Numbered from the stretch's first letter, positions 39,118 through 61,732 are shown. The stretch: DNA of 64,000 nucleotides from a virus (IMGVR_UViG_3300028797_000007:47500-111499); one strand, 5' to 3'. Numbers and translations: made by a program. Notes: generated by a model not told the origin, from the sequence alone.

Positions 39118-39119
39118 AA

Positions 39120-40098: not shown

Positions 40099-40131
40099 AT
40101 ATAAAATGGGGCCTAGAAGCCCCTTGTACAA

Positions 40132-40941: not shown

Positions 40942-40980
40942 GGTTAACTCCTTCCTATATAAGATTATTATTATCAAAAA

Positions 40981-41609: not shown

Positions 41610-41825
41610 TTTTTTCACCCTTAAAAACTATTTGTTTTTCCTTTCTTTAATTTTTACAATTTAATTATATCAAATATCAGAGCTAATTTCAAGTATTTTT
41701 TGAAAATTTCTGCTCTTCTATAAGAACATATCGTCTGAAACCAACATAGCCATCATTGGTCCGCACGATGCTCTGGCCTCCGGATGTTGAAGATATATCC
41801 TTATAGAAAAGCAGAATTCTTCTTT

Positions 41826-42143: not shown

Positions 42144-42211
42144 ATGAATACTTATCCTTTCTTTATTTCTAAAATAATTATAATATATTTATTAGTCATT
42201 TTTCAAGTATT

Positions 42212-42502
42212 TTAAATAAAATCTAATACTTCGTCATCGCCCCATCTTATTTGGTTTTCATCTACATATATTTGTAAATAATAGAATATATGACCATTTT
42301 TATGAATAACAACTAAATTAGTCTTTTCATAATCATAATAGCTTTGTTCCAAAGTAGTATTAAAATCTGTAATATCTGGTATTGGGACATATCTATATAC
42401 TTTATGAACTTCTTTTTCTTCTATTACATTATTTTGTACTAGAGTACTTCTATTTTTTGTTAGATTTTTTCCCAATACATATCCCATTGTAAAGTCCATC
42501 AT
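42212..42502 (-). CDS. Hypothetical protein
   Basis: 96 aa with RBS. Confidence 0.6.
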   Translation of the reverse strand: MMDFTMGYVLGKNLTKNRSTLVQNNVIEEKEVHKVYRYVPIPDITDFNTTLEQSYYDYEKTNLVVIHKNGHIFYYLQIYVDENQIRWGDDEVLDFI

Positions 42503-43550
42503 AATTATCTCTCCTTTCCATATATTTTTTTCTTTTTCTTGATTATATTATATCAAATCTAAAACATAATGACAACTATATTAAACTATTTTCTTGGTAA
42601 AAATATTTTTTACTTATTAAATTATATATATTATATATATTGATTAAATAAATAATATATTATAGTATCTATTGTCAAGTCATTTTTAAAATTTTCTCTA
42701 CTTAATATATTATATCTCTACTATAATATTATGTCAAGTAGTATTTATTGCTATCTATATTATTTGACAAAAGGAGCTGTGAAATTTTACTAATATTAAA
42801 AAACAGCAAAATAATTTATCCTGAGTAAAATATATCTTCCCCTTTTTTATTAAAAGAGTTTACAAATGGAATTATATAATTATATAATCTATTTGTAATT
42901 ATTAAAAAGCAAAAAAGAAAAAGGAGTACGATGTTATGACAAAATTAAAGCAATTTTTCAAAAAAATATTAAAGAAAAAGAGGAAATGTCCTAACAAAAA
43001 ATGTAATTATAATACAGGCAAATGTAAATGTACATTAGATGTTTGCCACTATAAAAATAGACAAAATTAATAAAAAAACTTGAATTTAGCAAGTTTAATA
43101 TTATATAATTATTTTAATGATTTGAAGAAATAGTTTTTCAAATCAATTGGGGGAAGCGCTGGCGCTTGAGAATTGTGATACATACCCTACTATATGAAAA
43201 CTTATGGATTGATATATTATATGTGGAAACCAAGGAATGATTAGACCGTTAGGTGCTATGAAATTCCAGTAGAAACTTATAGTAATTAGATAGACATAAA
43301 CTTAAGTGACGGGTAGCCTACTAGGACTTATAAGACTATTAGGTGAATCTCACAATAAACTCAAATTAAGACGCTCCCAGAGACTCGGGATGAGTTGGGT
43401 CAGTAGGTGGGAGACTCGAAGCACCGGGGGGCAGTCTAGATGCTCGCGAGGTGTGGGCAAGAATCTACGCAGAATTCCTTTATGGTAAGAGTAAGCCGTA
43501 GTTATAAAATCTTGCCCGTCAGCAAATTGAAAATTAAAGGAGGATGCTTT

Positions 43551-43757
43551 ATGGACAATAAAATGTTTTTTTATTATATTAAAGAGTTAAATGATTTACT
43601 TAAGCAACCCAATACTTTTAGAAATAGATTACAAATAAGAAAAATTAAAAAGATTATAAATAGAATGATAAAAGAAGCTGCTAAAGCTCAAGCAAATATT
43701 GTTTACAACCAAACAGTAGAACTTTATCAAAATATTATGAACTCAAATTTAGATTAA
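43551..43757 (+). CDS. Hypothetical protein
   Basis: AGGAGG RBS before MDNKMFF. Confidence 0.6.
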   Translation: MDNKMFFYYIKELNDLLKQPNTFRNRLQIRKIKKIINRMIKEAAKAQANIVYNQTVELYQNIMNSNLD

Positions 43758-43845
43758 ATACTTGAAATTATGAGAAAAAATATAATATAATTTTTATAGA
43801 AAAACAAAAAAACTTTTGAAATATAAAGTGGAAAGGTGGGTTTCT

Positions 43846-44058
43846 ATGAAGAAATATTATGCAGATATAAACTTATATTTTGATAATATGAAATATAGTA
43901 TAGCAGGGGATATTTCTACTAATCGCAAAGAAATGATTGAATTACTTAAAGATTTTGGTAAAAAATTAAACTTAGAATGTAATACTAAAAGTAAAAAGTT
44001 TGTTAATAAACAAGGTAAAGAAGTAGGTAGTTACACTCTTACTTCTATAATAATATAG
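43846..44058 (+). CDS. Hypothetical protein
   Basis: GAAAGGTGG RBS. Confidence 0.55.
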   Translation: MKKYYADINLYFDNMKYSIAGDISTNRKEMIELLKDFGKKLNLECNTKSKKFVNKQGKEVGSYTLTSIII

Positions 44059-44074
44059 GAAAGGAGAATATACT

Positions 44075-44389
44075 ATGGATAATTTAAGTGATAAAGCAAA
44101 AATAGTATATGCTACTCTAAAGATGTTAGGAGCTGAAGGGTTAGAAAATAAAGTGACTTCTTATGCAATTCTAGATTTTATAAGTGAAAATGAAGATTTA
44201 CAAGAACATGAATTGCTAAAAGATGTTAATGAAACTGACTTTGTAGACATTATAATGGAATTAAACATCAAGAGTGTAAATACTATTATTGCTTCTCTAT
44301 GTCGTAAAGGCTTGGTAGAAAAAACAGAACCAACTTCTATGACTATTGATGGTCAAAGAAGAAATTTAAGACAATATTTCATAAAATAA
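44075..44389 (+). CDS. Winged-helix protein
   Basis: LSDKAKIVY...KSVNTIIASLCRKGLVEK. Confidence 0.65.
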   Translation: MDNLSDKAKIVYATLKMLGAEGLENKVTSYAILDFISENEDLQEHELLKDVNETDFVDIIMELNIKSVNTIIASLCRKGLVEKTEPTSMTIDGQRRNLRQYFIK

Positions 44390-45059
44390 TTGACAAATGG
44401 TATTTAGAAATATTATAATAATAATGTAAAATGAATTTGACGATTATGTCGAGGAAATGCGATGTAACCGTTGTATAAAATGACAAAGTTTCAATTAAGG
44501 AGCTATAGGAATATTTTAGGACAAATGTATACAGCTCAAGGGCCGAGGTACTATGGAATAAAGGACGCCTTTAGAAGAATTTGAGAAATTAAAACATTTA
44601 GGTTTTTAGAAAAAAGTCGTCAGGTCTAATCAGCCTTAAACGATTTAAGGAGATTAACCAATAAACTTATTATGTATAAATGAATAATATGGTGTATATT
44701 TATAGTAATATAAATAAGGCATTTATATTCCCTGCGAAGTTAGTAGGGCACATTTCTGATAAAACATAACGCTTAATAAGTTTAAATAATCTAACGGGAG
44801 AAAGAAACTTCCAAGAAAAATATCACGCATTTAGTAGATATGTAAATTAAATATGGCCTGACATATTTAAAGGACATACCATCGGCTGTGAAACTTATGG
44901 CTTGCGTTTTGAGTTAAATTGAGACAGACTGTCTCGACTATAAGTGCCAGCTCGGTTGATAGTTTAATAGGAAAAACATTAATATGTAGGTTCGAATCCT
45001 ACTCATCCTAAATGTCTTTTTGTTTTAATAGGGAGACTTTAGTTTCCCCTTTTATTTAT

Positions 45060-45136
45060 GGCGGTGTAGCTCAGATGGCTAGAGCAGTGGATTCATACCC
45101 CACAGGTCATAGGTTCAAATCCTATCGCCGCTACCA
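45060..45136 (+). tRNA. tRNA-Met(CAT), elongator
   Basis: GGCGGTG acceptor, cloverleaf. Confidence 0.9.
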
Positions 45137-45641
45137 AATTTAGCTATATACACAGACGTGTGTGATATAAGGTTACAACTGGGACCAAACTACCAGTGAT
45201 GCCCTGATGCAGGCTAAATTGAATGCATCGGCCTATTATGGGGATGTTTCGGTTTCGACAGGAACTAACGAACACTCATGAAACAAGTCGCAGGTATGCG
45301 TTAAATCCAAACCTAAAAAAATAAATGGAAACATTTTTTCTAAAATCGCTAACAGAGTAAAATCTGTTTTCACTGCAAATGCAGTTGCTTTAGCATAGTC
45401 TAAGGCGTAGGCGACTTTCATATGAGTAGTCAGGAAGTGGACAGACAAAAATATGAATGTATTAACTTAGCAAGGTCCACCAATATTGAGATTTCCTAAA
45501 ACAATTTCTCTATTGATTTACTAAAAGTTTTAGGCTACCCCCAAGATTTGTTAATTGGGTAGGGTAAGTAGATAGAACGAAATTAACTAAGCTTGTAAGA
45601 AAGTAATGACTAGTAAATTGGTTTTTGGACACGAGTTCGAT

Positions 45642-46315
45642 TAACTATAGTCGACCTAATAAGTAATTATTAGTGGAAAAGTAAACTCAAGACGGTGAAG
45701 GCTAAGTCGTAAGATATGCTAACGCTGCGCTAAACCTATTGGAAACAATGGGGGAACGCCCAGAGACTCAGAGAACACCTAAGGATTTAATCTATGGTGT
45801 CGCTCGGATGGAAAAAACGATATTCAAAATCTCTTTTATGTGCTTTCATTTCATCGGTATATTTACCATTTCTTGGTGTTAAGTTATTATATTCATTAAC
45901 AAGAAGATTTGCTCGATATACTTTTGAAGGTTCAAGCATAAAAGGAAGCACTTTAGGTAAAAGATTTAAAACCTTATTACCAACTAAAGTCCAGTGCCAA
46001 CTTTGTTTATGATTTTCTTTGTAAACTTTGTTGGATACTATGGTTCCTCCAAAGTGAGATTTTAAATATTCTAAAAAAGAATAAGTTGTGCTAGTTACTG
46101 ACAATGTTGGATAACGGAATTCATTATAACTATGTATTTTAGTTAAGGTAATTGTCCCTTCTCCATCAATTATTCCAGCTGTGTAAGCATACATTATTTG
46201 ATTTTCCATAAATGTTTACCTCCTATATTTGGAATAGGGTTATATATCCCTCTATTCTAATAGTATATAGGATGAAGGAATAGTCCAAACTTTTATGAAA
46301 ATAGAAGATTATTTG
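45642..46315 (+). mobile_element. Group I intron in the tmRNA T-loop
   Basis: P1 TCGATT/AGTCGA with U:G, core R CAGAGACT and S ATAGTCC, terminal G. Removal restores ACGAG-TTCGATT-CTCGT. Confidence 0.88.
45787..46209 (-). CDS. LAGLIDADG homing endonuclease (single motif), antisense within the intron
   Basis: AYTAGIIDGEG motif, AGGAGGT RBS. Confidence 0.9.
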   Translation of the reverse strand: MENQIMYAYTAGIIDGEGTITLTKIHSYNEFRYPTLSVTSTTYSFLEYLKSHFGGTIVSNKVYKENHKQSWHWTLVGNKVLNLLPKVLPFMLEPSKVYRANLLVNEYNNLTPRNGKYTDEMKAHKRDFEYRFFHPSDTID

Positions 46316-46533
46316 TCTCGTCATCTCCACCATATGCCCTGAGCAGTTTTTAGAGTTGAATGGGGGCAGAACCCATAGGGGCACCTAATAAGAAAGGCTC
46401 TGACAGTGTGAGTGAATTACGCTGTCTCACTTAAATGGAAAGCTTTCAACCTGATTTGGTCAGGCTGGGGTTGTTATGAAACAATGCTGTTAGAGCTTAA
46501 CTTTTTAGACAGCGTAAAGAAAGAGGCGATATT

Positions 46534-47520
46534 ATGAGAACTTTATATAAGTATTTTGTATTTAGCGATGTACATGGCGAATATGATGCTCTTATAAGAA
46601 GTTTGGAAGAAGCAGGTTATGAAAGAAATAATCCTACTCATAAATTAGTTAGTTTAGGAGATGAATTTGATAGAGGACCTGATAGTCGTAAAATATATAA
46701 TTTTTTAATACAAAATCATGCCATATGTGTTAAAGGTAATCATGATGTTATGTTTCAAGAGTATCTAGAAAAAGGTATGGATGGAGAATTTGTATTATTT
46801 AATATATTACATAACGGATTAGGTGAAACAATTAAAAGTTTTACTGGTTTGCTGGACAAACAATTTAGTATAGAAACTTTACAAAAGGCAAGAGTAAGTG
46901 TACAAAGTAGAGATAGCGTTCTTCGTTGGCTACAAAATAAACCTTTGTTTTATGAAACAGATACATTTATCTTTGTCCATGCTGGTATTAATCCAAAATT
47001 AAGAGATTGGAAAGATACTGATGAACACTATGCACTTTGGGATATAGAAGATAGCCATAAGAGCTGTCCTAATGTAGGTAACAAAGTTGTTGTTATAGGG
47101 CATCATCATGCTTTTAGAGTAAGACAAAATGGTCTAGAAAATGGGAATGGTGACCCAGATTTAAGCCAAATAGATATGCATACGAATAGTCGTGATGAAA
47201 ATGGTAATTATCACTATTTCAAATTACATTCTTATGGTAACACTGATGAAAATCGTCCTTATGTAGGAGGAAATAAAATAGCTATCGATGGCTGTACTAA
47301 TTTAACTAAAAAGGTAAATGTTTTAGTTGTAGAAGATTATGAAAAAGAAGACCCTAAACCAGAAAAAGAGCCATCACCTGAGCAAGGCCCTAATGAACCT
47401 CATATAACAGTAACACAAAATGGATACACAATAAACATGGAACCTCAATGGTATAACTATGTAGATATGGGAACTACAGCAGCAGGTGGAGTATATACTA
47501 CTACAACTGGTAGAATATAG
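46534..47520 (+). CDS. Calcineurin-like metallophosphoesterase (Ser/Thr phosphatase type)
   Basis: SDVHG, LGDEFDRG, KGNHD, VHAG, IGHHH motifs. Confidence 0.9.
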   Translation: MRTLYKYFVFSDVHGEYDALIRSLEEAGYERNNPTHKLVSLGDEFDRGPDSRKIYNFLIQNHAICVKGNHDVMFQEYLEKGMDGEFVLFNILHNGLGETIKSFTGLLDKQFSIETLQKARVSVQSRDSVLRWLQNKPLFYETDTFIFVHAGINPKLRDWKDTDEHYALWDIEDSHKSCPNVGNKVVVIGHHHAFRVRQNGLENGNGDPDLSQIDMHTNSRDENGNYHYFKLHSYGNTDENRPYVGGNKIAIDGCTNLTKKVNVLVVEDYEKEDPKPEKEPSPEQGPNEPHITVTQNGYTINMEPQWYNYVDMGTTAAGGVYTTTTGRI

Positions 47521-47530
47521 GAGGATAAAT

Positions 47531-47863
47531 ATGAGAAAACAAATCATAAGTAAAGATGAAGAAAAACTTAATATAGTAATTCTTTCAAACGAAGATTTAG
47601 GTATAATAGTTAAAGGGATAGCTCGCTGTCATGCTGAAGATGAGTATAATAAAGAATTTGGTATATCATTAGCAAATACAAGAGCTTGGCTAAAATATTA
47701 TGAAAAATTATCTAAGTCTACTGTAAAAAAATTACAATGGGCTGAAGAAATAAGAAAAATCTATGAAGAAGAAATATCTCGTTTAACTACTACTAAAAAA
47801 TTAGCAGATACTAAACTTATTGAAATTAAAGAAGAATATAATAAAATGATAGAAACTATTTAG
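47531..47863 (+). CDS. Hypothetical phage protein
   Basis: GIARCHAEDEYNKEFG motif, GGAGG RBS. Confidence 0.65.
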   Translation: MRKQIISKDEEKLNIVILSNEDLGIIVKGIARCHAEDEYNKEFGISLANTRAWLKYYEKLSKSTVKKLQWAEEIRKIYEEEISRLTTTKKLADTKLIEIKEEYNKMIETI

Positions 47864-47930
47864 TTCCCCTCTATTTGGTAGAAGATTTGAATATATATTC
47901 AAGTTTTCTACTATATGATGGAGGTGTCAT

Positions 47931-48404
47931 ATGAAAAAAAGTAGAATAAGAGAATTAAGCGACCAAGATTTCTGTGCTTTAGTAGCATCTAGTTATTCAT
48001 ATAGTGATATCCTTAGGGCCTTAAAATTAGGGACAAAAGGAGGTTCATCTACGGATATACTTAAAGCTCGCATAAAAGAATTAGGATGTTCAATAGAGCA
48101 TTTTAATAGACGCAAGAGTGAAAATGTAAAAAATATAACTCAACCTTTAAGTACCATATTAGTAGAGAACTCGTCATATCATAACATTTCTCGTCTAAAA
48201 GAAAGACTTATTAGAGAAAAGAAATTAGAATATAAATGTGCTATATGTGGCAATCCTGGAACTTGGCAAGGTAAAAAGCTATGTTTACAATTAGACCATA
48301 TTAATGGTATTAATGATGACCATAGATTAAATAACCTAAGATTTTTATGTCCTAACTGTCATTCTCAAACAGATAATTACAGTGGGAAAAATAATAGGGG
48401 GTAG
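47931..48404 (+). CDS. HNH endonuclease
   Basis: CAICG...LDHING...NLRFLCPNCH. The 3' end overlaps tRNA-Trp(CCA). Confidence 0.9.
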   Translation: MKKSRIRELSDQDFCALVASSYSYSDILRALKLGTKGGSSTDILKARIKELGCSIEHFNRRKSENVKNITQPLSTILVENSSYHNISRLKERLIREKKLEYKCAICGNPGTWQGKKLCLQLDHINGINDDHRLNNLRFLCPNCHSQTDNYSGKNNRG

Positions 48405-48469
48405 GCGACGGTTGCCGACGAGTCTCCAAAACTTGTGTCGAGTGGGTTCAACTCCTACATCCCCTGCCA
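48396..48469 (+). tRNA. tRNA-Trp(CCA), atypical D arm
   Basis: AGGGGGT/ATCCCCT acceptor, loop CTCCAAA, G73. Confidence 0.8.
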
Positions 48470-48675
48470 TTTTTTTTGTAATGGAGGAATAATTGTGAAC
48501 AATAATAAAAAAGAATATTAGGAAGTCGGGGCAAATAGGAAAGTCCGCTTCCTATATTAGCAGTAATGCTTAAGCATAGGCATAGGCCAATGTGTTGTAT
48601 CCTGGAACAGGCGGCCCAGGGCCCCGTCCTATAATTCTTCATTTTCTCGCAGGGGGTATTTTCCCCCGATTTTAT

Positions 48676-48752
48676 GTCCCCATAGCTCAACTGGATAGAG
48701 CGTTGGTCTACGGAACCAAAGGTTGAGAGTTCAATTCTTTCTGGGGACGCCA
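48676..48752 (+). tRNA. tRNA-Arg(ACG)
   Basis: Cloverleaf. Confidence 0.95.
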
Positions 48753-48778
48753 TGAAAAAAATAAGGAGATATGATATT

Positions 48779-49081
48779 ATGCCAAAATTTATAGGCTGAA
48801 TTCCATTCAGAGAAATTAGCAAAGAAGCTCCATATGATAATATTCATAGAGAAATTATCATACGGCATTTAATAGATAATAATTATATTATTTGTGGAGA
48901 TACTCATCAATCTAAATATATTCCATTATTTGATGATGGAGATATGATGTTAACCATGAGGAGCTGAGGAGATTTAATGGCTGAGGCGTTAAACCGCAAA
49001 GATGCTAATAATCATTATAGATATTTAGATTTTTATATGGCATACACTTGTCCTATTAAAGAAAATTTACCTAAAACTTAG
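48779..49081 (+). CDS. Hypothetical protein (100 aa, two TGA=Trp), missed by the ORF track
   Basis: AAGGAG RBS. MPKFIG-W-IPF...TMRS-W-GDLMAEA..., ends in TAG. Confidence 0.75.
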
Positions 49082-49152
49082 AAAAATTATTGACAAGTGG
49101 TATTATCATTTGATATAATATATATAGATAAAATTAATAAGGAGGAAACAAT

Positions 49153-49665
49153 ATGGGAAAGATATATGTAACAAGTGATACGCACTTTAATCATAAAAAT
49201 ATAATAGAGTATTGTAACCGTCCTTATTCTTCAGTAGAAGAAATGAATAAAGCTCTTATAGATAACTGGAATTCAGTGGTTACTGATGATGATACGGTTT
49301 TCTTTTTAGGAGACTTTTGTTTAGGTAATAGAGATGAGGTAATTAAGTTTGGTTCTCAATTAAAAGGTAATAAAATCTTAGTAATTGGCAACCATGACAA
49401 AGTCACGACAACAGCTTATACTGAAGCTGGCTTCAAAACTATTTATAAAAAACCTACAATTATAAGGTTTGATGAGTTTGATATAACTATCGAATTTTCA
49501 CATGCTCCTCAATATCATGAGGATAATCAATATCCTAATATACACGGGCATGTACATGACCAAGTAGTAAATAACGCGAAACATTATTGTGCTTGTGTAG
49601 AAGGCAATGATTATAAACCCGTTTTATTAGATAATATAGTAAAATACTTCAAGGAACATGAATAG
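49153..49665 (+). CDS. Calcineurin-like phosphoesterase
   Basis: SDTHFNH, LGDF, GNHD, HGHVH motifs. Confidence 0.9.
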   Translation: MGKIYVTSDTHFNHKNIIEYCNRPYSSVEEMNKALIDNWNSVVTDDDTVFFLGDFCLGNRDEVIKFGSQLKGNKILVIGNHDKVTTTAYTEAGFKTIYKKPTIIRFDEFDITIEFSHAPQYHEDNQYPNIHGHVHDQVVNNAKHYCACVEGNDYKPVLLDNIVKYFKEHE

Positions 49666-49674
49666 TTCCTATAT

Positions 49675-49751
49675 GCCATGGTACCCAAGGGGTCTAAGGG
49701 GCTGGTCTGCAACACCAGTATACATTGGTTCAAATCCAATCCATGGCTCCA
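49675..49751 (+). tRNA. tRNA-Cys(GCA)
   Basis: Cloverleaf, U73. Confidence 0.9.
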
Positions 49752-53688: not shown

Positions 53689-54387
53689 ATGCAACAGAAT
53701 TTATTTGAATATCCAAGATGGACAATTTTATTAAGTACAGAAAATGCCGAAGATTTTAAGGAAGATGAGTTTAAAATAATATCTAAGCAAAAAAATCAAT
53801 TTGATGAAGAATTCACAATATTAGAGATAGAGGCTTTAACTGTAGATTGCCCATATACAGCCGACGAAATATTAGATATTATAACAGATGCAATAGCAAT
53901 TCATGAAGAATTTACTAATGCTATAGTTATTAGAGAAAATGATTTGTATGATTTAGGAGAAGACTTATATACTTGGGATGGGTCTGGAGAAGTGTTTTTA
54001 AGTGACATGCTAACTGACATAGAAAGACTTAATTTTCTTATGAATTATTTATATGAAGAATACAAAACATTGGTAACAGTAGATAAAATAAAAATTAAAT
54101 TAACTAAAGATGGTGAGCCCGTCTCTTTAACAGACAATATGGAAAAGTTATTTACTAATGATGTATATTCTTCAATATATGAAAACCAAGAAGACATCTT
54201 ATGGTGGCCTGAAATAACTAGACATGTAGGATTGTTTTTAGTTGTCTTGAATGAGGAATCAGATGATGATGAAAGAAAATTATTACCTATTCCTAGATAT
54301 GCTGATAGATATGATGATTGGGATTATGATGATTATAGTTATGATTATGGTTATGATTATGATGACAGATATTATAGAAGGACATAA
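53689..54387 (+). CDS. Acidic hypothetical protein
   Basis: 232 aa. Confidence 0.7.
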   Translation: MQQNLFEYPRWTILLSTENAEDFKEDEFKIISKQKNQFDEEFTILEIEALTVDCPYTADEILDIITDAIAIHEEFTNAIVIRENDLYDLGEDLYTWDGSGEVFLSDMLTDIERLNFLMNYLYEEYKTLVTVDKIKIKLTKDGEPVSLTDNMEKLFTNDVYSSIYENQEDILWWPEITRHVGLFLVVLNEESDDDERKLLPIPRYADRYDDWDYDDYSYDYGYDYDDRYYRRT

Positions 54388-54390
54388 ATT

Positions 54391-54981
54391 ATGATTAAAA
54401 ATATAGGATATAGTGAATTTGTTTTATTAATTGATGATGCATCTAAAGAAGAATTTGACCAAAAAGTTGAAAAATTCCAAATGATAGCTGACATAGTATC
54501 TGAGTATGATATTAAAACTAAAAAAAATCACTACTGGGTTGTCCAGTTAGTTGTATTACTTGAAAACCGAAGTTTAGAAGAGCTATGCAAATTTGTATAT
54601 AAATATTTCCCATTTATAGCTATGCGTCAAAATAATAGTACATATATATTAGCATCTGATAAAAAAACTTTCAAAGATATGGTTAATGATATTTATAGCA
54701 AAGAAAAGAAAAAATATTTTCTTTATGATATGTTAAGTATAGATGAAAGATATAAAGCATCTTGTAATACAGGAATCGAAATCGACCCCCTTTCAAGAAA
54801 CAGATTGTTACATAATGAATCTGGTTCTATATATTCGTTAATATATAATGAAGAATGTATATTTTTATTTACAAATGAACCAGAGATAACAATAATGGAT
54901 GAAAGCTCTGGAGAAGTAAAAGAGCTGGATATTACTGATGGGTTGGGAATTTTTGATTTTCATGTAGCAGTTTTAAAATAA
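54391..54981 (+). CDS. Hypothetical protein
   Basis: 196 aa. Confidence 0.7.
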   Translation: MIKNIGYSEFVLLIDDASKEEFDQKVEKFQMIADIVSEYDIKTKKNHYWVVQLVVLLENRSLEELCKFVYKYFPFIAMRQNNSTYILASDKKTFKDMVNDIYSKEKKKYFLYDMLSIDERYKASCNTGIEIDPLSRNRLLHNESGSIYSLIYNEECIFLFTNEPEITIMDESSGEVKELDITDGLGIFDFHVAVLK

Positions 54982-55037
54982 AAATCTTGAAAAAGACTAG
55001 TAAAAAATGATATAATTTTTATATAAAGAAAAAGAAA

Positions 55038-55625
55038 GTGAGTGATAAGAAAATGACAGATTTAAAAGTACCCGCAAATATTAGTCATACAGTATTGGTA
55101 CATGCAGGGTCATATAAAAGTTTCTTATCTCAGTTAACAATAAAATTTCCTCAACTAAAACCTAAATTTATAAAAAAAGTAGCAATACATTATTTTATAA
55201 TTCAGTTAGAGGATGTTGGAGAGAAAGCTATATCAAAAAAAGATATATATAGTTTACCTCTTATGGCAATGAGAGAAGAATTTAGCAGTTATATATTTTT
55301 TAAAAATGTTAGAAGTTATAATAATGTTTTAAAAAGAATGTGTGACGGTAATAATAATAAAAATGCAGCATATGATTTATTACAACACATGATGACACCA
55401 TTTGAAAAAAGTAGAATATTAAACTTGTGTGATGCAAAAACTCTAACTATTGAAGAAGAGGAAGATAAAGAAACTATAATAACAAGTTATAGTGGTGAAG
55501 CATTAAAAAGTATGGAAGTATTGAATAAGTTATTTTCTTTAAATAAAGTAGAAGTAGATAATGTTGATTTGGCATTTAATGAGTTAATAAAAAAAGAAAC
55601 TTGGTATATAGGAATACATAAATAA
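55038..55625 (+). CDS. Hypothetical protein
   Basis: 195 aa. Confidence 0.7.
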   Translation: MSDKKMTDLKVPANISHTVLVHAGSYKSFLSQLTIKFPQLKPKFIKKVAIHYFIIQLEDVGEKAISKKDIYSLPLMAMREEFSSYIFFKNVRSYNNVLKRMCDGNNNKNAAYDLLQHMMTPFEKSRILNLCDAKTLTIEEEEDKETIITSYSGEALKSMEVLNKLFSLNKVEVDNVDLAFNELIKKETWYIGIHK

Positions 55626-56035
55626 TGACTCCAAATTTAAGGTTCAATAAAAAATTAACTCGTAAACTCATTAAAGCAATTCCTAAAAATGATTATAAGC
55701 CAACGTTATTAAATATTGAATGGAACATGGACCATGGAAATAATGTTTATGGGCTAATTGACGATTCAGGCTTATTTAACAATACTGTATTCTTCTTACA
55801 AAGAGTTGAACCAAATAGATATAGATTAGTTGTATCAGATGGTTCTCCAGTTTGTAGTTTTTATCTTATAGACGATATAGAAAAGTTCTTAGATATAATA
55901 GGAGTAGAAGTATTAGAATTAGATAATCCTGAAGAAATCCGTCAAGCATTAGAAGAAACAATTCTTATACCTAACACTGGTATTTTAATGATAGATGGAG
56001 AGGAAATATATTTATATGAGCACCGTAACTACTAG
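55625..56035 (+). CDS. Hypothetical protein
   Basis: 136 aa. Confidence 0.7.
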   Translation: MTPNLRFNKKLTRKLIKAIPKNDYKPTLLNIEWNMDHGNNVYGLIDDSGLFNNTVFFLQRVEPNRYRLVVSDGSPVCSFYLIDDIEKFLDIIGVEVLELDNPEEIRQALEETILIPNTGILMIDGEEIYLYEHRNY

Positions 56036-56294
56036 AGTGCCTAGAATTGGGGATATATGGTTAGTCCATTATCCCTACCTTACTCCAGGCAATATGGAAA
56101 AAATTAGACCCGGAATTATAATCGGTTTTAAGAATAATGATGAAGTAATAATTCAAAAACTTACTACTAAAAAAAAGAAATATAATAAAGAATTTGTACA
56201 TCCCAAATTAAAAAGAAAAACTTATCTTTCTCCAGAAAAAATGAGTATACAAGATTATAACCTAATTAGATATATAGGAAAGGCGAAAATATAG
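56016..56294 (+). CDS. PemK/MazF-like protein
   Basis: GDIWLVHYPY...KIRPGIII...LTT pattern. Confidence 0.6.
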   Translation: MSTVTTRVPRIGDIWLVHYPYLTPGNMEKIRPGIIIGFKNNDEVIIQKLTTKKKKYNKEFVHPKLKRKTYLSPEKMSIQDYNLIRYIGKAKI

Positions 56295-56306: not shown

Positions 56307-58070
56307 ATGATTACAATAGAAACTAAAATCAAATTAAATGAATTAGAAAGTCTTAGTGGGATAAATGGGTTATATTTAATTAGATTAGCAACTAAAACAC
56401 CTATGACATCAGAAGTTGCTAAAGACGCAATTATTAATCACTTAATGAGTGAAGTAGAAATAAAATATCGTGATGTCAACAATACTAGTGTTTTTAGAAA
56501 AAATACTTATTTAGCAGATTTAGAAGTATTAAAAAAATCACTAATAGTATTTGATAAAATAGATAATTATAATGGAGATTATGGTACAATAGAATATCAC
56601 CAAATGATTTTAAAGATAAATGATGAAGATAAAGAAAGAGCAAAAACAAGAACTACTAACTTAAATAAGTTTACTTATAAATTTATGCAAGATATATATG
56701 GCATGTATGGAGAGAATTGGAAAATGCCAGCATGTCCTATGCCTTTTATATATACTATATCATATATCTTTCCTGACAGAGGAACTTGCGCTTTAATGAT
56801 ATGTAATAATAATGATGCATCCTTAAGCAAATTTATAAGTCAAGAGTATAAATCTAGTAAACATATAGCAATTAGTTTTGATACTAATGTAAATAAATGC
56901 TATAATAGAAGTTCTATTATTAAAATAAATTGTAGAATATATAATACTTTGCAAGAAGCATTTGATAATAAGACAAACGAAACATTAGGAATAGACCAAT
57001 ATGACGGTTTATTTGGAAGGTTCAGTTTCTTCACTTATAAAAATGACATGCACGGTGGTATAAGAATAAACATATTATATAAAAATAAACCAAAATTATT
57101 ATGGTATAAAGATATGGCAATATTTTATGACGGAGAAAAGGCATTAGGAGATGCACAAGAATATTTCGATACCTGGGAAAAAAGAGGAATAAAACAAATA
57201 GATATTCTTCAATTTTGTCATAATAAAGATTTCTTTTATCAAGATTCTGCAGGTACTATTAATCTAGCAAATAAAATGGTATTATTATTTTTAAGACAAG
57301 ATAAAATTGATTTACCAAGAACTGAAATTACTTTGCGTAATAATAGAGGTTTTAAAGGAATGGTTGTTTATAATCTTGGCAAGAATCAAAAGAGAACTTA
57401 TTTAGAAATAGGCTTTGGTAATAGAACTCCTAGTGTATCTCAATATTTTGGTTCAGTTGTTGTCCCAGTAAATGATAAAGATATACAAAAAGATGCCTTA
57501 AGAATGATAAGTGAAATGATAAAATTTGCTTTACCAACTGATATATTAGAAGAAAATATAGATTTTCCTAGTTGTTTTGAAGCTTATAGAAAATATTTAT
57601 TAGACATTGTAGAAAAATCTGCTCCAGATACTTTATCTGAATGGTTTGAATACTGTACTCGCGCATCTAGACAAAATGACAATAATATCGTTAGTGCATA
57701 TGAGAAAATGAAACAAAGTTTAGAAAGTGAATATAAAAAACTAAGTTTTTATCTAAATCACTACGATTTTTCTAAATGTATGCCAGTCCCTCGTATAACA
57801 ACTGATGAAAAACTAATACAAAATTGTTATAAATGTTTACACATAGAACCAAAAACTGTTATAATTAAATCAATAAATAATAGAAATATTAAAGCAATAG
57901 AAGAAATTCAACCAACAATAAGTTTTATGGTTATAGACAAAAAAGGAAAAATCCTTAAAAATGATTATTCTATTAATAAGTTTTATAATGGTAAGACGAA
58001 TGAAGTTGAATTGCTATATAATAAATTGAAAGGAGAGGTAATTCGTGATAAAGTTAAAAATAGGAGATAA
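56307..58070 (+). CDS. Large hypothetical protein upstream of the Ubl cassette
   Basis: 587 aa, overlaps the next gene. Confidence 0.75.
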   Translation: MITIETKIKLNELESLSGINGLYLIRLATKTPMTSEVAKDAIINHLMSEVEIKYRDVNNTSVFRKNTYLADLEVLKKSLIVFDKIDNYNGDYGTIEYHQMILKINDEDKERAKTRTTNLNKFTYKFMQDIYGMYGENWKMPACPMPFIYTISYIFPDRGTCALMICNNNDASLSKFISQEYKSSKHIAISFDTNVNKCYNRSSIIKINCRIYNTLQEAFDNKTNETLGIDQYDGLFGRFSFFTYKNDMHGGIRINILYKNKPKLLWYKDMAIFYDGEKALGDAQEYFDTWEKRGIKQIDILQFCHNKDFFYQDSAGTINLANKMVLLFLRQDKIDLPRTEITLRNNRGFKGMVVYNLGKNQKRTYLEIGFGNRTPSVSQYFGSVVVPVNDKDIQKDALRMISEMIKFALPTDILEENIDFPSCFEAYRKYLLDIVEKSAPDTLSEWFEYCTRASRQNDNNIVSAYEKMKQSLESEYKKLSFYLNHYDFSKCMPVPRITTDEKLIQNCYKCLHIEPKTVIIKSINNRNIKAIEEIQPTISFMVIDKKGKILKNDYSINKFYNGKTNEVELLYNKLKGEVIRDKVKNRR

Positions 58071-59346
58071 CTTTTTAATAACAACACATGAAGATTATAT
58101 GATGAAAGACTTCATCATTTATACTATGAGTTGTTTTAAAGGTCATAATAAACTTCTTTTAGGATTTGACCCAACTTTCCGTGAAGACAATTATTCGGAT
58201 TACCTTAAAACCCTAAGAGAAGAACAACCTAAAGAATTATTCATTTTAATAGATACATCATTAAGACCTACATATAATAAAGAGCAAATAAAAATTGTAC
58301 ACATGATAGGGTTAAAAACTCTTATACCTCAATTAAAAGAGATTTTACCTAATACAAAAATAGCGATAGTTAAAGTTCATAATAAAAAAGATAGTAGAGA
58401 ATATAAAATAGGCAAAGATGTATATGAAGCATTAGAAATAAATGACAAAAGTATATTAAAATATTTAGATAAATTAGATGAATATAAACTTTTTGCTAAT
58501 AGATATAAAGCAATCCCAGGAGAGCTTAAAGTTATTAACGAAAATATAAAACAATTATCTAAGGAAAAGAAAATAAGCGACAGAATGGTTACATTAGAAG
58601 ATTTAAAATATCTTAATTTAATAGATACGGCAGAGCTTCATAATGATAGTTTAATTATAACAATTAAACCTGTCCCTATTTATCCATCTGAGCCTTTAGG
58701 ATTAAGTTTTACAAAATCAAGCTTTGAAAAAAATAAGTATTTAGCTAAAGCGGCTGAATATATATATAAAGGTTGTCATTTTGGAATGGTAGGAACAAGA
58801 ATAGCTATTCGCCCAAACTTTACTCCTGAGTTTATTGAAACTCTTGACCATAAGTTTGATGATATGTTTGCTCGTAACAATTGGTCTAATATAGGATATT
58901 TACATTTCGGAAAAGGACATCTATGTGGTGGAGAATTCAATGATGTAATAGCTCATACTGCAGAGCATGGCCTTGAATATTATTTTATGTGCTTAAAGCA
59001 ATATATTACAACAGCAAATATGAGAGATTATGCAGGTAAAAAAGTATGGTGGTACCCTATATATGATAATAACAATAATTTAGTTTATTGTGCTGGTCTT
59101 GATATATTAAGAGATAATTTATTATCTCAATCATTGCCAGCTGAATATAAAGAGGAAATAAAAAGCTTGGATTGGGAAGGATTCTTAAAATGGAAAGAAA
59201 AACATGGAGTAAGTTTTAATAATTTACAAACTCCATACAATTCCGATAGCGTAAGCGGATATTCAGGAAGAGAAGATACATTCTTAGAGTATTGTAAAGA
59301 ACATAACCTTGAATTATATGAAGAATTAAAGAAAGGAGCTAAATAA
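58045..59346 (+). CDS. Putative prokaryotic E2-like protein
   Basis: YLHFGKGHLCGGEF...LKQYITTANMRDYAG resembles the E2 H-x(5)-C core. Adjacent to JAB, E1 and Ubl genes. Confidence 0.5.
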   Translation: MIKLKIGDNFLITTHEDYMMKDFIIYTMSCFKGHNKLLLGFDPTFREDNYSDYLKTLREEQPKELFILIDTSLRPTYNKEQIKIVHMIGLKTLIPQLKEILPNTKIAIVKVHNKKDSREYKIGKDVYEALEINDKSILKYLDKLDEYKLFANRYKAIPGELKVINENIKQLSKEKKISDRMVTLEDLKYLNLIDTAELHNDSLIITIKPVPIYPSEPLGLSFTKSSFEKNKYLAKAAEYIYKGCHFGMVGTRIAIRPNFTPEFIETLDHKFDDMFARNNWSNIGYLHFGKGHLCGGEFNDVIAHTAEHGLEYYFMCLKQYITTANMRDYAGKKVWWYPIYDNNNNLVYCAGLDILRDNLLSQSLPAEYKEEIKSLDWEGFLKWKEKHGVSFNNLQTPYNSDSVSGYSGREDTFLEYCKEHNLELYEELKKGAK

Positions 59347-59347
59347 A

Positions 59348-60064
59348 ATGGCTAAAACGGTTACATTTTTAGATAATAGATACGAACTTTATATTTTACC
59401 TTTAGCAAGACAAAAAATGGAAATGTATTGCGATTTATCAGAAGGAGAAATAGGATGGCTAGCTTATGTAGAACAATTTGATAAGAACGGCTTCTTAATA
59501 ACTGACTGTGCTTTATTAAAACAAGAAGTTCATGCAACAACAACTGAAATAACAGCGGAAGGACTATTAGAATTTTGGAATAATACAGCACCTGAACAAC
59601 AAGGTAAAATAAAATTATGGGGACATTCTCATGTAAATATGAGTCCTTCTCCATCTGGTCAAGATGATAGTCAAATGGAGTATTTTAAAGATGGTAATCC
59701 TTGGTTTATTAGACTTATCACAAATAAAAAAAGAGAGTATCATATTGATATATACGATTATGAACATGGCATTAAAGTTCATATGGACCAAGCCGATTTA
59801 AAAACTTATAATCCTGAAGCAAGTGAACTTCGTAAAACAATAGAAGAAGAAATAAAAGATAAGGTAAGTAAGAAAGAATATAAGCCTGCTACTACTTCTA
59901 CAAATACTGGTTCAGCTTATAAAGGTTATAATTATAATAGAGGCTCATCAAAAAAAAGCGAAAAAAAAGATGCGCCTATACTAAAAGACATCGACGTTAA
60001 GTATGTTAACTCATTCGACGAAGTATTAAATGACCCTAATTATTGGCAAAATATTTTAGATTAA
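59348..60064 (+). CDS. JAB/MPN+ metallopeptidase
   Basis: EIGW...WGHSHVNMSPSPSGQD (E-HxH-x7-S-x2-D). Confidence 0.85.
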   Translation: MAKTVTFLDNRYELYILPLARQKMEMYCDLSEGEIGWLAYVEQFDKNGFLITDCALLKQEVHATTTEITAEGLLEFWNNTAPEQQGKIKLWGHSHVNMSPSPSGQDDSQMEYFKDGNPWFIRLITNKKREYHIDIYDYEHGIKVHMDQADLKTYNPEASELRKTIEEEIKDKVSKKEYKPATTSTNTGSAYKGYNYNRGSSKKSEKKDAPILKDIDVKYVNSFDEVLNDPNYWQNILD

Positions 60065-60168
60065 TTTTTAAAAAAAACTTCACAAACGGTTATAAAATAT
60101 TATATAATATTATTGTAATATAAAAAAGATATTATATTATATTATATTTTAAGAAAGGGGAATATAAT

Positions 60169-60906
60169 ATGGACTTAAGTAGACACATAAGTGTGTTCTC
60201 ACCAGATAATGTTAAATATCCTATACATATAATAGGTGTAGGAGCAACAGGTTCGTTTGTTGCGATGGAATTGGCGAGAATGGGTTGTCCTGTATTAAAC
60301 TTATATGATTTTGATGATGTAGAAATACACAACATCCCAAATCAATATTATGATACAGAAGATTTAGGTAAATTAAAAGCTGAAGCATTAGCTGATAAAC
60401 TTAAAGCAATTAACCCTAATATTGTTGTAAATGTAAATACAACAGCTGTTCTACCAACACATGATGATGAACACAGAGGCATAGACGAAATGTCTGGGTA
60501 TGTATTCTTATTAGTTGACAGTATGAAAGTTCGTAAAGAACTTTGGACAGCAATTAAAGAAAATAAGAATATCGTTCATTGTTGGGAAAGCCGTTTAGGT
60601 TCAGACCAAGCAAGAGTTTATTCTCTTGATATGAGCGTAAAAGATTTTAGTAAGTATGAGGTAGACTTCTATGATGATGACAATGCAGAAGTATCAGCTT
60701 GCGGAACATCAATCACAGTATTACCAATAGTACTTCAAACAGCTTCTCTAATGATAGTTCAATTTATTGATTTAGTTATGGAGAAGAGTGGAACTTATTT
60801 CTTCAAAACAATCTTCGATAACCATTATAATAAATATGAAGAAAGTTTTGATGAACCAGAAGTATTAGAAGAAGTTCCAGTTGCAACTCAAGAAGATATA
60901 TTTTAA
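60169..60906 (+). CDS. ThiF/MoeB/E1-like adenylyltransferase
   Basis: IIGVGATGS, DFDDVEIHNIPNQ, GKLKAEA, LLVDS, SACG. Confidence 0.92.
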   Translation: MDLSRHISVFSPDNVKYPIHIIGVGATGSFVAMELARMGCPVLNLYDFDDVEIHNIPNQYYDTEDLGKLKAEALADKLKAINPNIVVNVNTTAVLPTHDDEHRGIDEMSGYVFLLVDSMKVRKELWTAIKENKNIVHCWESRLGSDQARVYSLDMSVKDFSKYEVDFYDDDNAEVSACGTSITVLPIVLQTASLMIVQFIDLVMEKSGTYFFKTIFDNHYNKYEESFDEPEVLEEVPVATQEDIF

Positions 60907-61027
60907 AAAATTGCAAAAACTTACAAAAAATACTTCACAAAATCTAATATAATTTGATATAATTATATTGTAAATGATTAAAGAATAAATCATTTAAAAT
61001 AAGTAAAGAAAGAGAGGAAATTTTCAT

Positions 61028-61249
61028 ATGGAAAACATTTATTCAGTAATAATCACAAAAGTACCAGGAGGAGCTAATCCAGTTATCAGTCACGGAACTG
61101 AAACAGTAGCTGAATTATTCGCAACTGCATTCAATGGAGAAAGCATCAACGGTTACCAAATCACAGTTGGAGGACAAGCAAGAGAAGCTTCTTATGTTCC
61201 TAGAGCTGGTGAAAATATCACTGTAGCAAAAATGATTAAAGGTAACTAA
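61028..61249 (+). CDS. Ubiquitin-like (beta-grasp) protein ending -KGN
   Basis: 73 aa, TVAELF...ITVGG...PRAGENITV..KMIKGN, own promoter, high-expression codons. Confidence 0.8.
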   Translation: MENIYSVIITKVPGGANPVISHGTETVAELFATAFNGESINGYQITVGGQAREASYVPRAGENITVAKMIKGN

Positions 61250-61732
61250 TCCTTTAATAACTCTTTAGATATATAAGTGGGGAGATTAAGTTCTCCCCCG
61301 GATATCCGAATATGAGTTACTATAAAACCTTGGAGCGACAGAACAATATTATAATTTAAAATCATATAGAACTGACTTCAAGGGATATAAGAAACAAAAT
61401 TAGCAGATTGAGGAGGATAGTTTGATGGCTTGAGTAAAGCCGTCGCTCCATTCTTTTAATATAGTATCGAAGGGTGTCAGTAATGACTACCCTTCTTTTT
61501 TGTATGAAGCTATCAAACCATTTTAGCAAAATAAACTAGCGTAAAACGATTAAAATCTTTTTATAATATAATTTATTTATTAAAATATAAAAAGCGATAT
61601 ACGCCACAAAAATTCGTTAAATTTTAAGAAAAAAAGCCTTTTTAAAAAATTAAAAAATTAAAAAAGTTTTCCATTTAGACTTCACAGAAGGTTTCAATAT
61701 ATGATATGATATGGAAAACAAGGAGGAAAATA

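Follow-up and report, generated by a model that had tools for sequence, protein, structure and literature searches.

The stretch of phage DNA analysed here (the window; 64,000 nucleotides) contains, as the first-pass annotation had described, five co-oriented ORFs on the + strand. They encode a 587-aa protein, a 433-aa protein, a JAMM peptidase (JAB), an E1 and a 73-aa ThiS-like protein (Ubl; Table 1), and each is preceded by a Shine-Dalgarno-like site. All five stop with TAA and have no in-frame TGA; thus, the TGA recoding of this phage leaves them unaltered. The genes had been taken to be the phage's own, and this was upheld: the uncultured phage genome (111.5 kb) is complete, with terminal repeats, the members of its clade, phages of roughly 110-120 kb, have the cassette in common, and the module recurs widely among viral contigs, many other uncultured phages carrying such a kit.

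Table 1. Features of the cassette, with positions counted from the first nucleotide of the window
Feature	Position	Strand	Basis or remark
587-aa accessory protein	56307..58070	+	ORF; overlaps start of E2-like gene by 26 nt
433-aa E2-like protein	58045..59346	+	No Pfam domain in homologs; model and fold matches
Predicted active-site loop H287-F-G-K-G-H-L-C294-G-G of E2-like protein	58903..58932	+	Invariant residues
238-aa JAMM/MPN+ metallopeptidase (JAB)	59348..60064	+	Motif; weak Pfam/PADLOC matches
Promoter-like site before E1 gene	60079..60108	+	TTCACA-18-TATAAT, 11/12, in 104-nt gap; consensus match only
245-aa minimal E1 (ThiF-type adenylation domain only)	60169..60906	+	Pfam ThiF
Candidate catalytic Cys178 (S-A-C-G) of E1	60700-60702	+	Invariance
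Promoter-like site before Ubl gene	60934..60963	+	TTCACA-18-TATAAT, extended TG, 11/12, in 121-nt gap
73-aa ubiquitin-like (ThiS/MoaD-type) protein	61028..61249	+	ThiS-like Atlas neighbours; conservation
K71-G72-N73 end of Ubl	61238-61246	+	
7-bp GC-rich hairpin	61279..61298	.	30 nt past Ubl stop codon, without T-run

The E1 was matched by Pfam ThiF over residues 19-222 (E 9.5e-23; 81 bits, cut-off 28.1). Among 100 distinct phage E1s, GxGxxGS, D47, D49, N55, N58, Q59, K70, D117, R142, S176 and C178 were invariant or nearly so; these include G23, G25, G28 and D117, which represent the GxGxxG loop and the Mg-binding Asp. C178 was present in all 99 of the sequences that have a residue at this column. 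The protein had been read as a ThiF/E1 with its Cys in SACG and no CxxC zinc pairs, and it is: C178 lies in S-A-C-G, and the sequence contains neither a CxxC pair nor a rhodanese domain. It begins directly at the adenylation domain, with no N-terminal peptide-clamp domain, and the Cys sits inside the adenylation domain rather than in a separate Cys domain. Among solved structures, TcdA, PaaA and UBA5 come nearest (E 3e-8 for UBA5). Two features count against conjugation: in sequence the E1 is closest to non-conjugating enzymes, for example ThiF and TcdA, and it has the invariant Asn58 in place of the Arg usual in N-x-x-R-Q. The NCBIfam ThiF and MoeB models scored far under their cut-offs.

The HxH-S-D motif of JAB, previously noted as intact, is conserved, since E34 and H93-x-H95-x7-S103-x-x-D106 were invariant in 12 orthologs, and the JAMM motif is kept in the 25%-identical copy in MT835544. 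In addition, JAB contains a variable linker and, at its C-terminal end, the conserved motif LNDPNYWQ. Family models matched weakly (Pfam Prok-JAB, 17.2 bits, below the gathering cut-off of 25; the PADLOC JAB match was also weak). The best PDB profile match was the archaeal desampylase PfJAMM1 (E 0.03), spanning the metal site.

The gene for the Ubl is the most conserved of the cassette (73-99% identity across the clade), and its ORF does end in K-G-N, as first read. Atlas placed the protein next to ThiS-like clusters (score 0.92-0.93) and Pfam Ub-Mut7C gave weak matches in 13 of 22 homologs; a search of PDB with the Ubl profile found no match. The C-terminus is almost always Gly-Asn plus zero to two residues, most genes stopping exactly after the Asn. 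In lineages L063, L064, L067, L080 and L092 the ending is G-A or G-S, so Gly is the constant residue. None of the homologs compared ends at Gly; one to three residues, and up to 25, lie beyond it, and tandem genes encoding poly-Ubl, with units joined as ...KGN/x, occur in L044 and L097 (three units each), L049, L059 and L062. These comparisons support the suggestion, made in the first-pass annotation, that JAB trims a capped Ubl. The strong codon bias attributed to the Ubl was also found, with a CAI of 0.78 compared to 0.41-0.65 for 13 neighbouring genes (reference, capsid and tail-tube genes); such capsid-like usage fits a stoichiometric reagent. A point against such trimming is that a simple removable cap does not explain the near-invariance of the Asn that follows the Gly.

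The 433-aa protein consists of an N-terminal alpha/beta domain (aa 1-~121), a long helix, a UBC-like domain (aa ~173-346; C-domain) and a helical tail, and belongs to a family of 6,128 clusters. A Pfam domain was found in none of 122 metagenomic homologs, HMMER profiles (29 close or 25 distant members, genome) matched no E2 in PDB or Pfam (UQ_con, Prok-E2), and Foldseek with models of the 433-aa protein gave no significant match in PDB. Model pLDDT was 89.6 for the whole protein and 94.0 for the C-domain alone (pTM 0.90). An E2-like core had been proposed for this protein, and a search for the UBC fold did not contradict it: the C-domain matches almost only UBC/RWD/UEV structures, the 50 best VIA fold matches being nearly all E2/RWD/UEV. 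E2s align end to end with the C-domain over about 110 of 150 residues (rmsd 3.3-3.9). The best match was UBE2L6 (Z 6.5, 111 residues aligned), and other Z values were 6.0 for UbcH7, 5.9 for UBE2S and 4.2 for the Bil E2 8tyz_C; these are modest, as none reaches 8. UFC1, Atg3 and Atg10 were also among the matches, those to Atg3 and Atg10 being weaker than those to ordinary E2s.

H287, C294 and G296 of this protein did not vary across the 29 close and the 25 distant homologs compared; the spacing is H287-x6-C294 and not the H-x5-C originally given. The family signature is (H)-P-H-[VI]-x6-7-C-x-G. Among the 150 best representatives, the Cys was present in every one, P-H-[VIL]-x6-7-C-x-G in 145 and 'HPH' in 118. 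The classical E2 signature is HPN...C, with the HPN-type motif approximately 7-8 residues before the catalytic Cys, and the HPH...C motif of the family appears to be a close counterpart of this site. The C-domain is confidently modelled as a UBC/E2-like fold, a link that rests on fold and motif, and Cys294 is predicted to lie at the E2 active-site position by topological placement, not by atomic superposition. The carrier enzyme of this cassette would come from an E2-like family not previously catalogued.

No match to the 587-aa protein was found in Pfam, PHROG, PADLOC or NCBIfam, Atlas gave no fold or family, and the E2-like profile did not match it (E 0.13). Its orthologs are 23-40% identical, with conservation limited to the C-terminal third and no catalytic-looking invariant residues. 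The protein had been put forward as an adaptor or substrate, but it is confined to this phage clade and fast-evolving, and such a role found no support.

Linkage was analysed in 110 divergent loci (61 viral and 49 MAG). Examination of synteny in related phages, which had been proposed as a check, showed the cassette to be shared by the clade and JAB to adjoin E1 in 59 of 61 viral loci; the same holds for 48 of 49 MAG loci. The arrangement is far beyond chance, and the linkage, seen in four different gene orders, goes further than common descent within a single phage clade would explain. The E2-like protein flanks JAB in most loci (37 of 49 in the MAG set), and an iterative search set apart 35 E2-like members (E ≤ 4e-11), all other matches having E ≥ 0.42. 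The Ubl was detected in about three quarters of viral loci. Comparison of the loci shows that the four core genes, as predicted here (Ubl, JAMM peptidase, minimal E1 and E2-like), travel together across very divergent phages.

Judged from sequence and models, the cassette is probably a phage-encoded ubiquitin-like protein conjugation system (a probability of roughly 65%). A promoter of its own would drive abundant synthesis of the Ubl in a capped precursor form (...K-G/N), which the JAMM peptidase would cut after Gly72 in the manner of BilC on BilA or DUBs on polyubiquitin. An E1 dimer would adenylate the exposed Gly and load the Ubl onto Cys178 in the crossover-loop region, comparable to the minimal E1 UBA5. 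The Ubl would be handed on to Cys294 of the E2-like domain and ligated to a target amine, with the target chosen by the variable N-terminal half of the E2-like protein, perhaps together with the clade-specific 587-aa protein. JAB may also undo tagging. Because the cassette is part of the early/middle replication region, which keeps the standard code in this TGA-recoded phage, tagging should start ahead of virion gene translation. Its targets may be host defence or replication-associated proteins, although this is a guess. To our knowledge, research on such ubiquitin-style kits has until now dealt only with their use by bacteria against phages, and no description of a phage-encoded cassette of this kind was found in the literature searched.

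Among known systems, Bil (BilA Ubl, BilB E2, BilC JAB, BilD E1) reportedly corresponds to operon class 6d of Iyer et al. 2006. Like Bil, the phage cassette has separate genes for Ubl, E2, JAMM peptidase and E1 in one operon, and the Bil E2 is among the fold matches of the phage C-domain. BilC pre-processes BilA, removing its C-terminal extension to expose Gly (PMC10557695), as proposed here for JAB. However, Bil is a bacterial anti-phage defence that tags phage tail proteins, whereas this cassette is phage-owned. BilD has a separate mobile Cys domain, while the phage E1 is a 245-aa adenylation domain alone; the 433-aa E2-like protein carries an additional N-terminal domain and resembles no E2 in sequence, and the phage tag ends in G-N and forms tandem repeats in some phages. 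The E1-E2-JAB logic is also that of type II CBASS. The best PADLOC matches of the phage E1 were Cap2-type E1-E2 models (E about 1e-14) and JAB matched Cap3-type models weakly. In contrast to type II CBASS, the phage has no E2-E1 fusion, no SMODS/CD-NTase was found in its genome, and the substrate is a dedicated beta-grasp tag.

The UFM1 tag of eukaryotes starts out as a capped precursor. The UFM1/UBA5/UFC1 pathway resembles the cassette in that UBA5, likewise a minimal E1, lacks a Cys domain and carries its Cys in the crossover loop, and in that UFM1 ends in a single Gly after a non-Gly residue (PMC12355090); in addition, UFC1 was among the fold matches. The phage tag and E2 have no sequence relationship to theirs, however, trimming would fall to a JAMM peptidase instead of a Cys protease, and the phage E1 is smaller (245 aa versus about 400 aa for UBA5). 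The archaeal SAMP/UbaA/JAMM1 system and the bacterial sulfur-carrier sets QbsCDE, CysO-Mec+ and TtuBCD likewise combine a ThiF-type E1 and a JAMM peptidase with a small tag of the ThiS/MoaD kind. The phage JAB finds its best solved match in PfJAMM1, but these systems lack an E2, their tags end in G-G, and they are coupled to enzymes of sulfur transfer that are absent from the phage. Bub pathways (formerly 6E/DUF6527) are a diverged prokaryotic set of E1, E2, Ubl and peptidase (PMC11601596). Bub uses oxyester (Ser) intermediates and a JAB-E1 fusion without a catalytic Cys, whereas the phage E1 and E2-like protein each keep an invariant Cys and are encoded by separate genes.

Two assignments of the E1 were rejected. 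It is not a ThiF/MoeB proper (sulfur-carrier E1), as the two CxxC zinc pairs, a G-G partner and ThiG/MoaE/rhodanese are all missing in the phage. Nor is it an E1 of the MccB/microcin C type, given that there is no N-terminal peptide clamp, the substrate is a folded 73-aa protein and the terminal Asn is found in most, not all, lineages.

The terminal Asn might be the activated residue rather than a cap. The E1 would then adenylate the Asn carboxylate (leading to a thioester, or to an MccB-like succinimide or phosphoramidate), while JAB would only remove the optional one or two residues past Asn, cut poly-Ubl after Asn and deconjugate. Nearly all homologs, even at about 25% identity, have Asn after the Gly, and we know of no Ubl precursor whose cap is conserved in this way. 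Furthermore, MccB, an E1-like enzyme, acts on a C-terminal Asn, and the phage E1s have the invariant Asn58 where other E1s have the usual Arg of the N-x-x-R-Q motif. Activation of Asn is nevertheless rather unlikely, since it is the Gly that stays constant where G-A or G-S replaces G-N, the E1 has no peptide-clamp domain, and JAB is always present, even with nothing past the Asn, which fits an obligatory cut after Gly. It is quite improbable that the cassette is a sulfur-carrier pathway (cf. QbsCDE, CysO/Mec+, TtuB/TtuC), in which the JAB-exposed Gly would be adenylated, the thiocarboxylate would donate sulfur to tRNA, a DNA base or a metabolite, and the Cys of the 433-aa protein would be a persulfide relay. 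The best sequence matches of the E1 (ThiF, TcdA, MoeB), the resemblance of the Ubl to ThiS/MoaD, the JAMM trimming of sulfur carriers known for QbsD/QbsE and the 26 tRNA genes of the phage all suit it. However, the absence of thiamine and molybdopterin genes, first remarked on for the window, extends to the whole 111.5-kb genome, where no ThiG, MoaE, ThiS model, rhodanese, cysteine desulfurase or PP-loop/MnmA thiolase was found. The E1 lacks a rhodanese domain and CxxC pair, its partner combines a UBC-like fold with the E2-like motif HPH...C, the Ubl ends in G-N and not G-G, and tandem poly-Ubl and capsid-like codon usage suggest a reagent that is consumed, not a recycled carrier.

Conjugation to something other than protein, such as a lipid (as in Atg8-PE), a nucleotide, or DNA/RNA ends in the replication compartment, is very unlikely. 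In its favour, genes for DNA polymerase and for SbcC-like, Sak4 and RT-like proteins neighbour the module in unrelated phages, the module comes with neither an E3 nor a protein that is an obvious substrate, and Atg3 and Atg10 are among the fold matches. Those two are outscored by ordinary E2s, though, nothing specific favours such a target, and every prokaryotic E1-E2-JAB system characterised so far acts on proteins (PMC11601603). Finally, phage Ubl and JAB pairs without E1 are known from tail modules (PMC1779556), so Ubl and JAB could work as a pair in assembly or processing, a role suggested for proteins I and K of the lambda tail, with the E1 and the 433-aa protein doing unrelated jobs. As the E1 adjoins JAB in nearly every locus with its ATP site and Cys intact, and the module is in replication rather than tail regions and lacks an NlpC/P60 domain, an absence of any conjugation is extremely improbable.

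Beyond the protein conjugation system favoured here, phages may own a large and ancient ubiquitin branch, with poly-Ubl precursors, a minimal E1 and an unrecognised E2 family, whose Gly-Asn chemistry is unlike that of every known Ubl pathway, the Asn reacting rather than being disposable, and which is used early to tag host or replication proteins. We consider this broader picture unlikely.

The Ubl had been credited with a promoter of its own. An 11/12 site is indeed present in the gap before the gene, but promoter-like sites across the region overall were not above shuffled expectation. The hairpin after the Ubl gene is possibly a transcript-end or stabilising element.

All five co-oriented ORFs of the cassette, comprising a 587-aa protein, an E2-like protein of 433 aa, JAB (a JAMM metallopeptidase), E1 and a ubiquitin-like tag (Ubl), are present as described by the first-pass annotation, tightly packed and each preceded by a ribosome-binding site. 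Synteny in related phages, which had been proposed as a check, is perfect in 17 loci of the same clade (phages of ~110 to 120 kb). As shared ancestry alone could explain this, the wider survey carries the weight. The module is widespread: JABs of the subfamily with the motif GHSHVNM were found in 346 viral stretches, and more than 6,000 clusters make up the E2-like family. In 61 divergent viral loci JAB adjoins E1 in all but two (59/61), and in 46 a Ubl was found no more than a few kb away; gene order varies (E2-like-JAB-E1-Ubl; Ubl-E2-like-JAB-E1; JAB-E1-Ubl; Ubl-E1-JAB-E2-like). Loci from metagenome-assembled genomes (MAGs; 49 loci, every one on a metagenomic contig, with no isolate among them) show JAB-E1 in 48 and an E2-like gene flanking JAB in 37. 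That the four genes are kept together through rearrangement and divergence is strong comparative evidence that they function together. The 587-aa protein is outside this conserved core, and four family libraries, the Atlas of protein clusters and the E2-like profile were all blank for it.

Locations of the cassette genes and associated features (L-numbers are divergent viral or MAG loci carrying related modules)
Feature	Sequence	Positions	Strand	Remarks
Late (virion) genes	window	1-19000	minus	1 to 3 in-frame TGA each
tRNA genes (26)	window	32165-49751		22 in one minus-strand array; nearly all amino acids covered
tRNA, anticodon UCA	window	39919-40014		96 nt; within tRNA array; called tRNA-SeC by ARAGORN
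Three consecutive genes	window	53689-55625		232, 196 and 195 aa; no assigned function
99-aa protein	window	55995-56294		directly upstream of 587-aa gene
587-aa protein	window	56307-58070	plus	
E2-like protein	window	58045-59346	plus	433 aa
JAB	window	59348-60064	plus	238 aa
JAB end	window	59990-60064	plus	Ser/Lys-rich linker and LNDPNYWQ
E1	window	60169-60906	plus	245 aa
E1 end	window	60850-60906	plus	acidic tail, terminal Phe
Ubl	window	61028-61249	plus	73 aa
RT-like polymerase	L019	6888-8225		follows module
RT-like polymerase	L076	6857-7999		follows module
Second E2-like copy	L056	3569-4930		Val for invariant Cys
Tandem Ubl	L049	2502-3320		two units, then 136-aa domain

A DNA search of GenBank phages with the cassette gave no match, and protein searches with E1 and JAB found a single record there, the unannotated MT835544. 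Its module consists of a 78-aa ORF, an E2-like protein (491 aa), JAB, E1 and then an RT-like gene. Alignment of the 78-aa and 491-aa proteins with the window's Ubl and E2-like alignments by hhalign gave no match; iterated profiles joined the 491-aa protein to the E2-like family, whereas the 78-aa protein was assigned to no family.

JAB scores weakly against the Pfam and PADLOC JAB models. It carries the complete invariant JAMM motif (E34 and H93-x-H95-x7-S103-x-x-D106), in line with the intact HxH-S-D motif noted before, and the best solved match of its profile is the archaeal desampylase PfJAMM1 (E = 0.03), in an alignment that spans the metal site. E1 is a ThiF-family adenylation domain and nothing further (Pfam E = 9.5e-23). 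Among solved structures it is closest to TcdA, PaaA and UBA5, and the NCBIfam ThiF and MoeB models all score far below their cut-offs. Among 100 distinct phage homologues, the GxGxxGS loop, D47, D49, N55, Q59, K70, D117 and R142 are invariant or nearly so, as is C178 of S-[AP]-C-[GN], the Cys to which attention had been drawn, and N58 stands in place of Arg in the usual N-x-x-R-Q. E1 also has no CxxC pair, in agreement with the earlier reading that zinc-type Cys pairs are lacking. JAB ends in a variable Ser/Lys-rich linker followed by a conserved LNDPNYWQ motif. E1 has an acidic tail whose last residue is Phe (...[DE][DE][LIM]F), and this tail is kept throughout the clade. By analogy with the tail of UBA5, which binds UFC1, both ends may be docking peptides.

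Of the parts of the finding, the 433-aa protein was the least secure, as it is recognized by none of the family libraries. A Pfam domain is found in none of its 122 metagenomic homologues. Matches of the E2-like domain in a viral structure library are all 'uncharacterized protein'. The full-length model (pLDDT 89.6) has an N-terminal α/β domain, a long helix and a C-terminal domain, the last of which reaches pLDDT 94 and pTM 0.90 when modelled alone. The proposed check for a UBC fold was made by searching 48,161 representative solved chains with the C-terminal domain. The 50 best matches are almost only UBC, RWD and UEV folds, and include many E2s, the RWD domains of Knl1 and GCN2, FANCL, Atg10, the African swine fever virus E2 and the bacterial Bil E2 (8tyz_C). 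E2s rank first in a second comparison (UBE2L6, Z = 6.5; UbcH7, 6.0; UBE2S, 5.9), the alignments running end to end over about 110 of the 150 E2 residues. Foldseek searches of the PDB with the whole model and with the C-terminal domain gave no significant match, and HMMER profiles of the family found no E2 among PDB sequences or Pfam. With every Z below 8 and no significant Foldseek match, the E2 case depends on how uniform the match list is and not on any single score.

The family itself is sharply bounded. An iterated profile search of ORFs in the divergent loci gathered 35 proteins at E ≤ 4e-11 (the next ORF has E = 0.42), almost all encoded directly next to JAB, and a MAFFT alignment of 25 of them has His287, Cys294, Gly296, Asp328 and Gly331 as invariant residues. 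An exhaustive search of 1.84 billion representative proteins with the profile returned 6,128 clusters (defined at 50% identity) at E ≤ 1e-3 and 3,236 at E ≤ 1e-10. In the 150 best matches (median length 455 aa) the Cys is always present, P-H-[VIL]-x6-7-C-x-G is found in 145 and, within these, H-P-H in 118. The classical E2 active site is H-P-N-[IV]-x3-4-G-x-[IV]-C, with a gap of seven residues from Asn to Cys. The phage family has the same layout, with His replacing Asn. In the model the motif is in the loop that connects the sheet region to the long helices, which would be the position of the E2 active-site loop. The 433-aa protein is read as a divergent E2, whose N-terminal half might be the target-binding part. 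The N-terminal domain has many Rossmann/GTPase-like fold matches (Z = 5 to 6.7), with no nucleotide-binding motif conserved in it, and is assigned to none of these folds.

Two E2-like copies occur in each of L059 and L080. In L056 a Cys-bearing copy lies beside one with Val for the invariant Cys; in lacking the Cys this paralogue resembles UEV proteins, and the pair resembles an E2 with its UEV partner.

The Ubl has 73 aa and ends K-G-N, as originally read, and is the best-conserved gene of the cassette (73 to 99% identity, compared with 23 to 40% for the 587-aa protein). A beta-grasp fold is likely, as predicted: the nearest Atlas clusters are ThiS-like (score 0.92 to 0.93) and 13 of 22 homologues weakly match Ub-Mut7C, a beta-grasp family (best E = 0.0097). 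Its profile found nothing among PDB sequences, and the Pfam ThiS model has no match in the genome. The strong codon bias attributed to Ubl is borne out (CAI 0.78 against capsid and tail-tube genes, compared with 0.41 to 0.65 in its neighbours), and the gap before the gene contains, by sequence match, a good promoter-like site, consistent with the promoter postulated for it.

Every Ubl homologue examined ends in ...[K/R]-G-N plus zero to two residues, occasionally up to 24, apart from a few lineages with G-A or G-S instead of G-N; none ends at the Gly. In several phages Ubls occur in tandem, linked head to tail at ...K-G-N|x, with three units in L044 and L097 and two in L049, L059 and L062; a single extra Asn follows the last unit in L044 and L059, and some genes have an added C-terminal domain. 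The tag is made as a capped or tandem precursor, like polyubiquitin, and the tandem precursors have to be cut before single units are free; the JAMM peptidase, which is always present, is the obvious candidate. A precedent for processing by JAB is the removal of the C-terminal extension of BilA by BilC (PMC10557695). Since the Gly is constant and the cap universal, cleavage after the Gly is the favoured prediction from these alignments. It leaves the near-invariance of Asn unexplained, and activation of the Asn itself is kept as a rival. Intein-like self-cleavage at Asn in the tandem junctions was rejected because the following residue is often V, M or Q, not C, S or T.

The two-unit Ubl of L049, L050 and L051 is followed by an extra domain of 136 aa that could be cargo released by JAB or a built-in substrate. 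In L103, L104 and L106 a compact E2-like-JAB-E1 operon precedes a Ubl to which a second beta-grasp-like unit and a C-terminal extension are fused. As the L104 copy sits within a 1.2-Mb contig, binned as Saccharibacteria, it is read as a prophage or cellular copy.

The classical alternative for a ThiF-JAMM-ThiS trio is a sulfur carrier. However, the genome, which is complete, is without a PP-loop thiolase, MnmA, rhodanese, cysteine desulfurase, ThiG or MoaE, so the reported absence of thiamine and molybdopterin genes extends beyond the window. A rhodanese domain is missing from E1 too, and the partner protein is E2-like; poly-Ubl genes together with the high expression suggested by codon usage are more in keeping with a tag that is consumed than with a carrier that is recycled. 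An assembly role for Ubl and JAB of the lambda type leaves E1 unexplained. A CBASS-like role was excluded, as the genome has no CD-NTase and no E2-E1 fusion.

The window covers the final 64 kb of the virus record (111,499 bp with direct terminal repeats), with virion genes on the minus strand and a plus-strand early/middle region ending in a Sak4-type recombinase. The portal of the phage shares only ~27% identity with portals from Lactococcus, Enterococcus and Bacillus phages. L096, a 120-kb contig from a near relative (JAB 78% identical), was deposited within a MAG labelled 'Bacteroidaceae'. It is probably of phage origin and was caught up in the binning, and the label is unreliable as evidence of host, as MAG bin labels are for phage contigs. 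Read with code 4, the late genes join up into long ORFs that abut one another. The early region, cassette genes included, has no in-frame TGA, which rules out TGA recoding as altering cassette gene boundaries, and the cassette genes stop at TAA, so that they are translatable before any code switch. In unrelated phages the module adjoins genes for DNA polymerase, SbcC-like proteins, RT-like polymerase or Sak4, not virion genes. These neighbours and the standard-code location point to action early or midway through infection. One phage subgroup has the module followed by the RT-like polymerase (L019, L076, L090 and L094), which is recognized by a YADD motif and by matches to phrog_2825 and reverse transcriptases.

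To our knowledge, prokaryotic E1-E2-JAB-Ubl systems (CBASS type II, Bil and Bub) have been characterized only as bacterial weapons against phages. The cassette points the other way, to a version owned by a virus, and is built from families unnamed in Pfam, PHROGs and PADLOC. Bil is closest in working, likewise having separate Ubl, E2, JAB and E1 genes and pre-processing by JAB (deduced here from the genes). The E1 and the tag are most like those of the UFM1 pathway, with its minimal E1, Cys in the crossover-loop region and single-Gly tag (PMC12355090). The cassette is nevertheless not a member of Bil, CBASS or Bub: its E1 lacks a Cys domain, its E2-like family is unrelated in sequence and it is owned by a phage. 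Ser oxyesters and a JAB-E1 fusion, which are features of Bub (PMC11601596), further set it apart. Iyer et al. (2006) found phage Ubl-JAB pairs in tail modules only and E1-E2-JAB-Ubl operons in bacteria only (PMC1779556). In the full-text literature searched, whose coverage was not exhaustive, a phage-owned E1-E2-JAB-Ubl system, a Gly-Asn tag and phage poly-Ubl genes were not described. Were it to conjugate proteins, the cassette would represent a new class of phage tool for host takeover or counter-defence, would broaden the view of the evolution of ubiquitin-type signalling and would offer a compact, orthogonal four-gene kit for protein tagging. The conserved Gly-Asn end poses a clear biochemical question.

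Upstream of the cassette, the 99-aa protein has weak PemK/MazF-like matches (Pfam E = 1e-3; PHROG 'MazF-like growth inhibitor', 2.5e-6) and is well conserved within the clade (62 to 77% identity). Of the three genes before it, those encoding the 196- and 195-aa proteins are probably paralogues, since both cross-hit the same stretch of L014.
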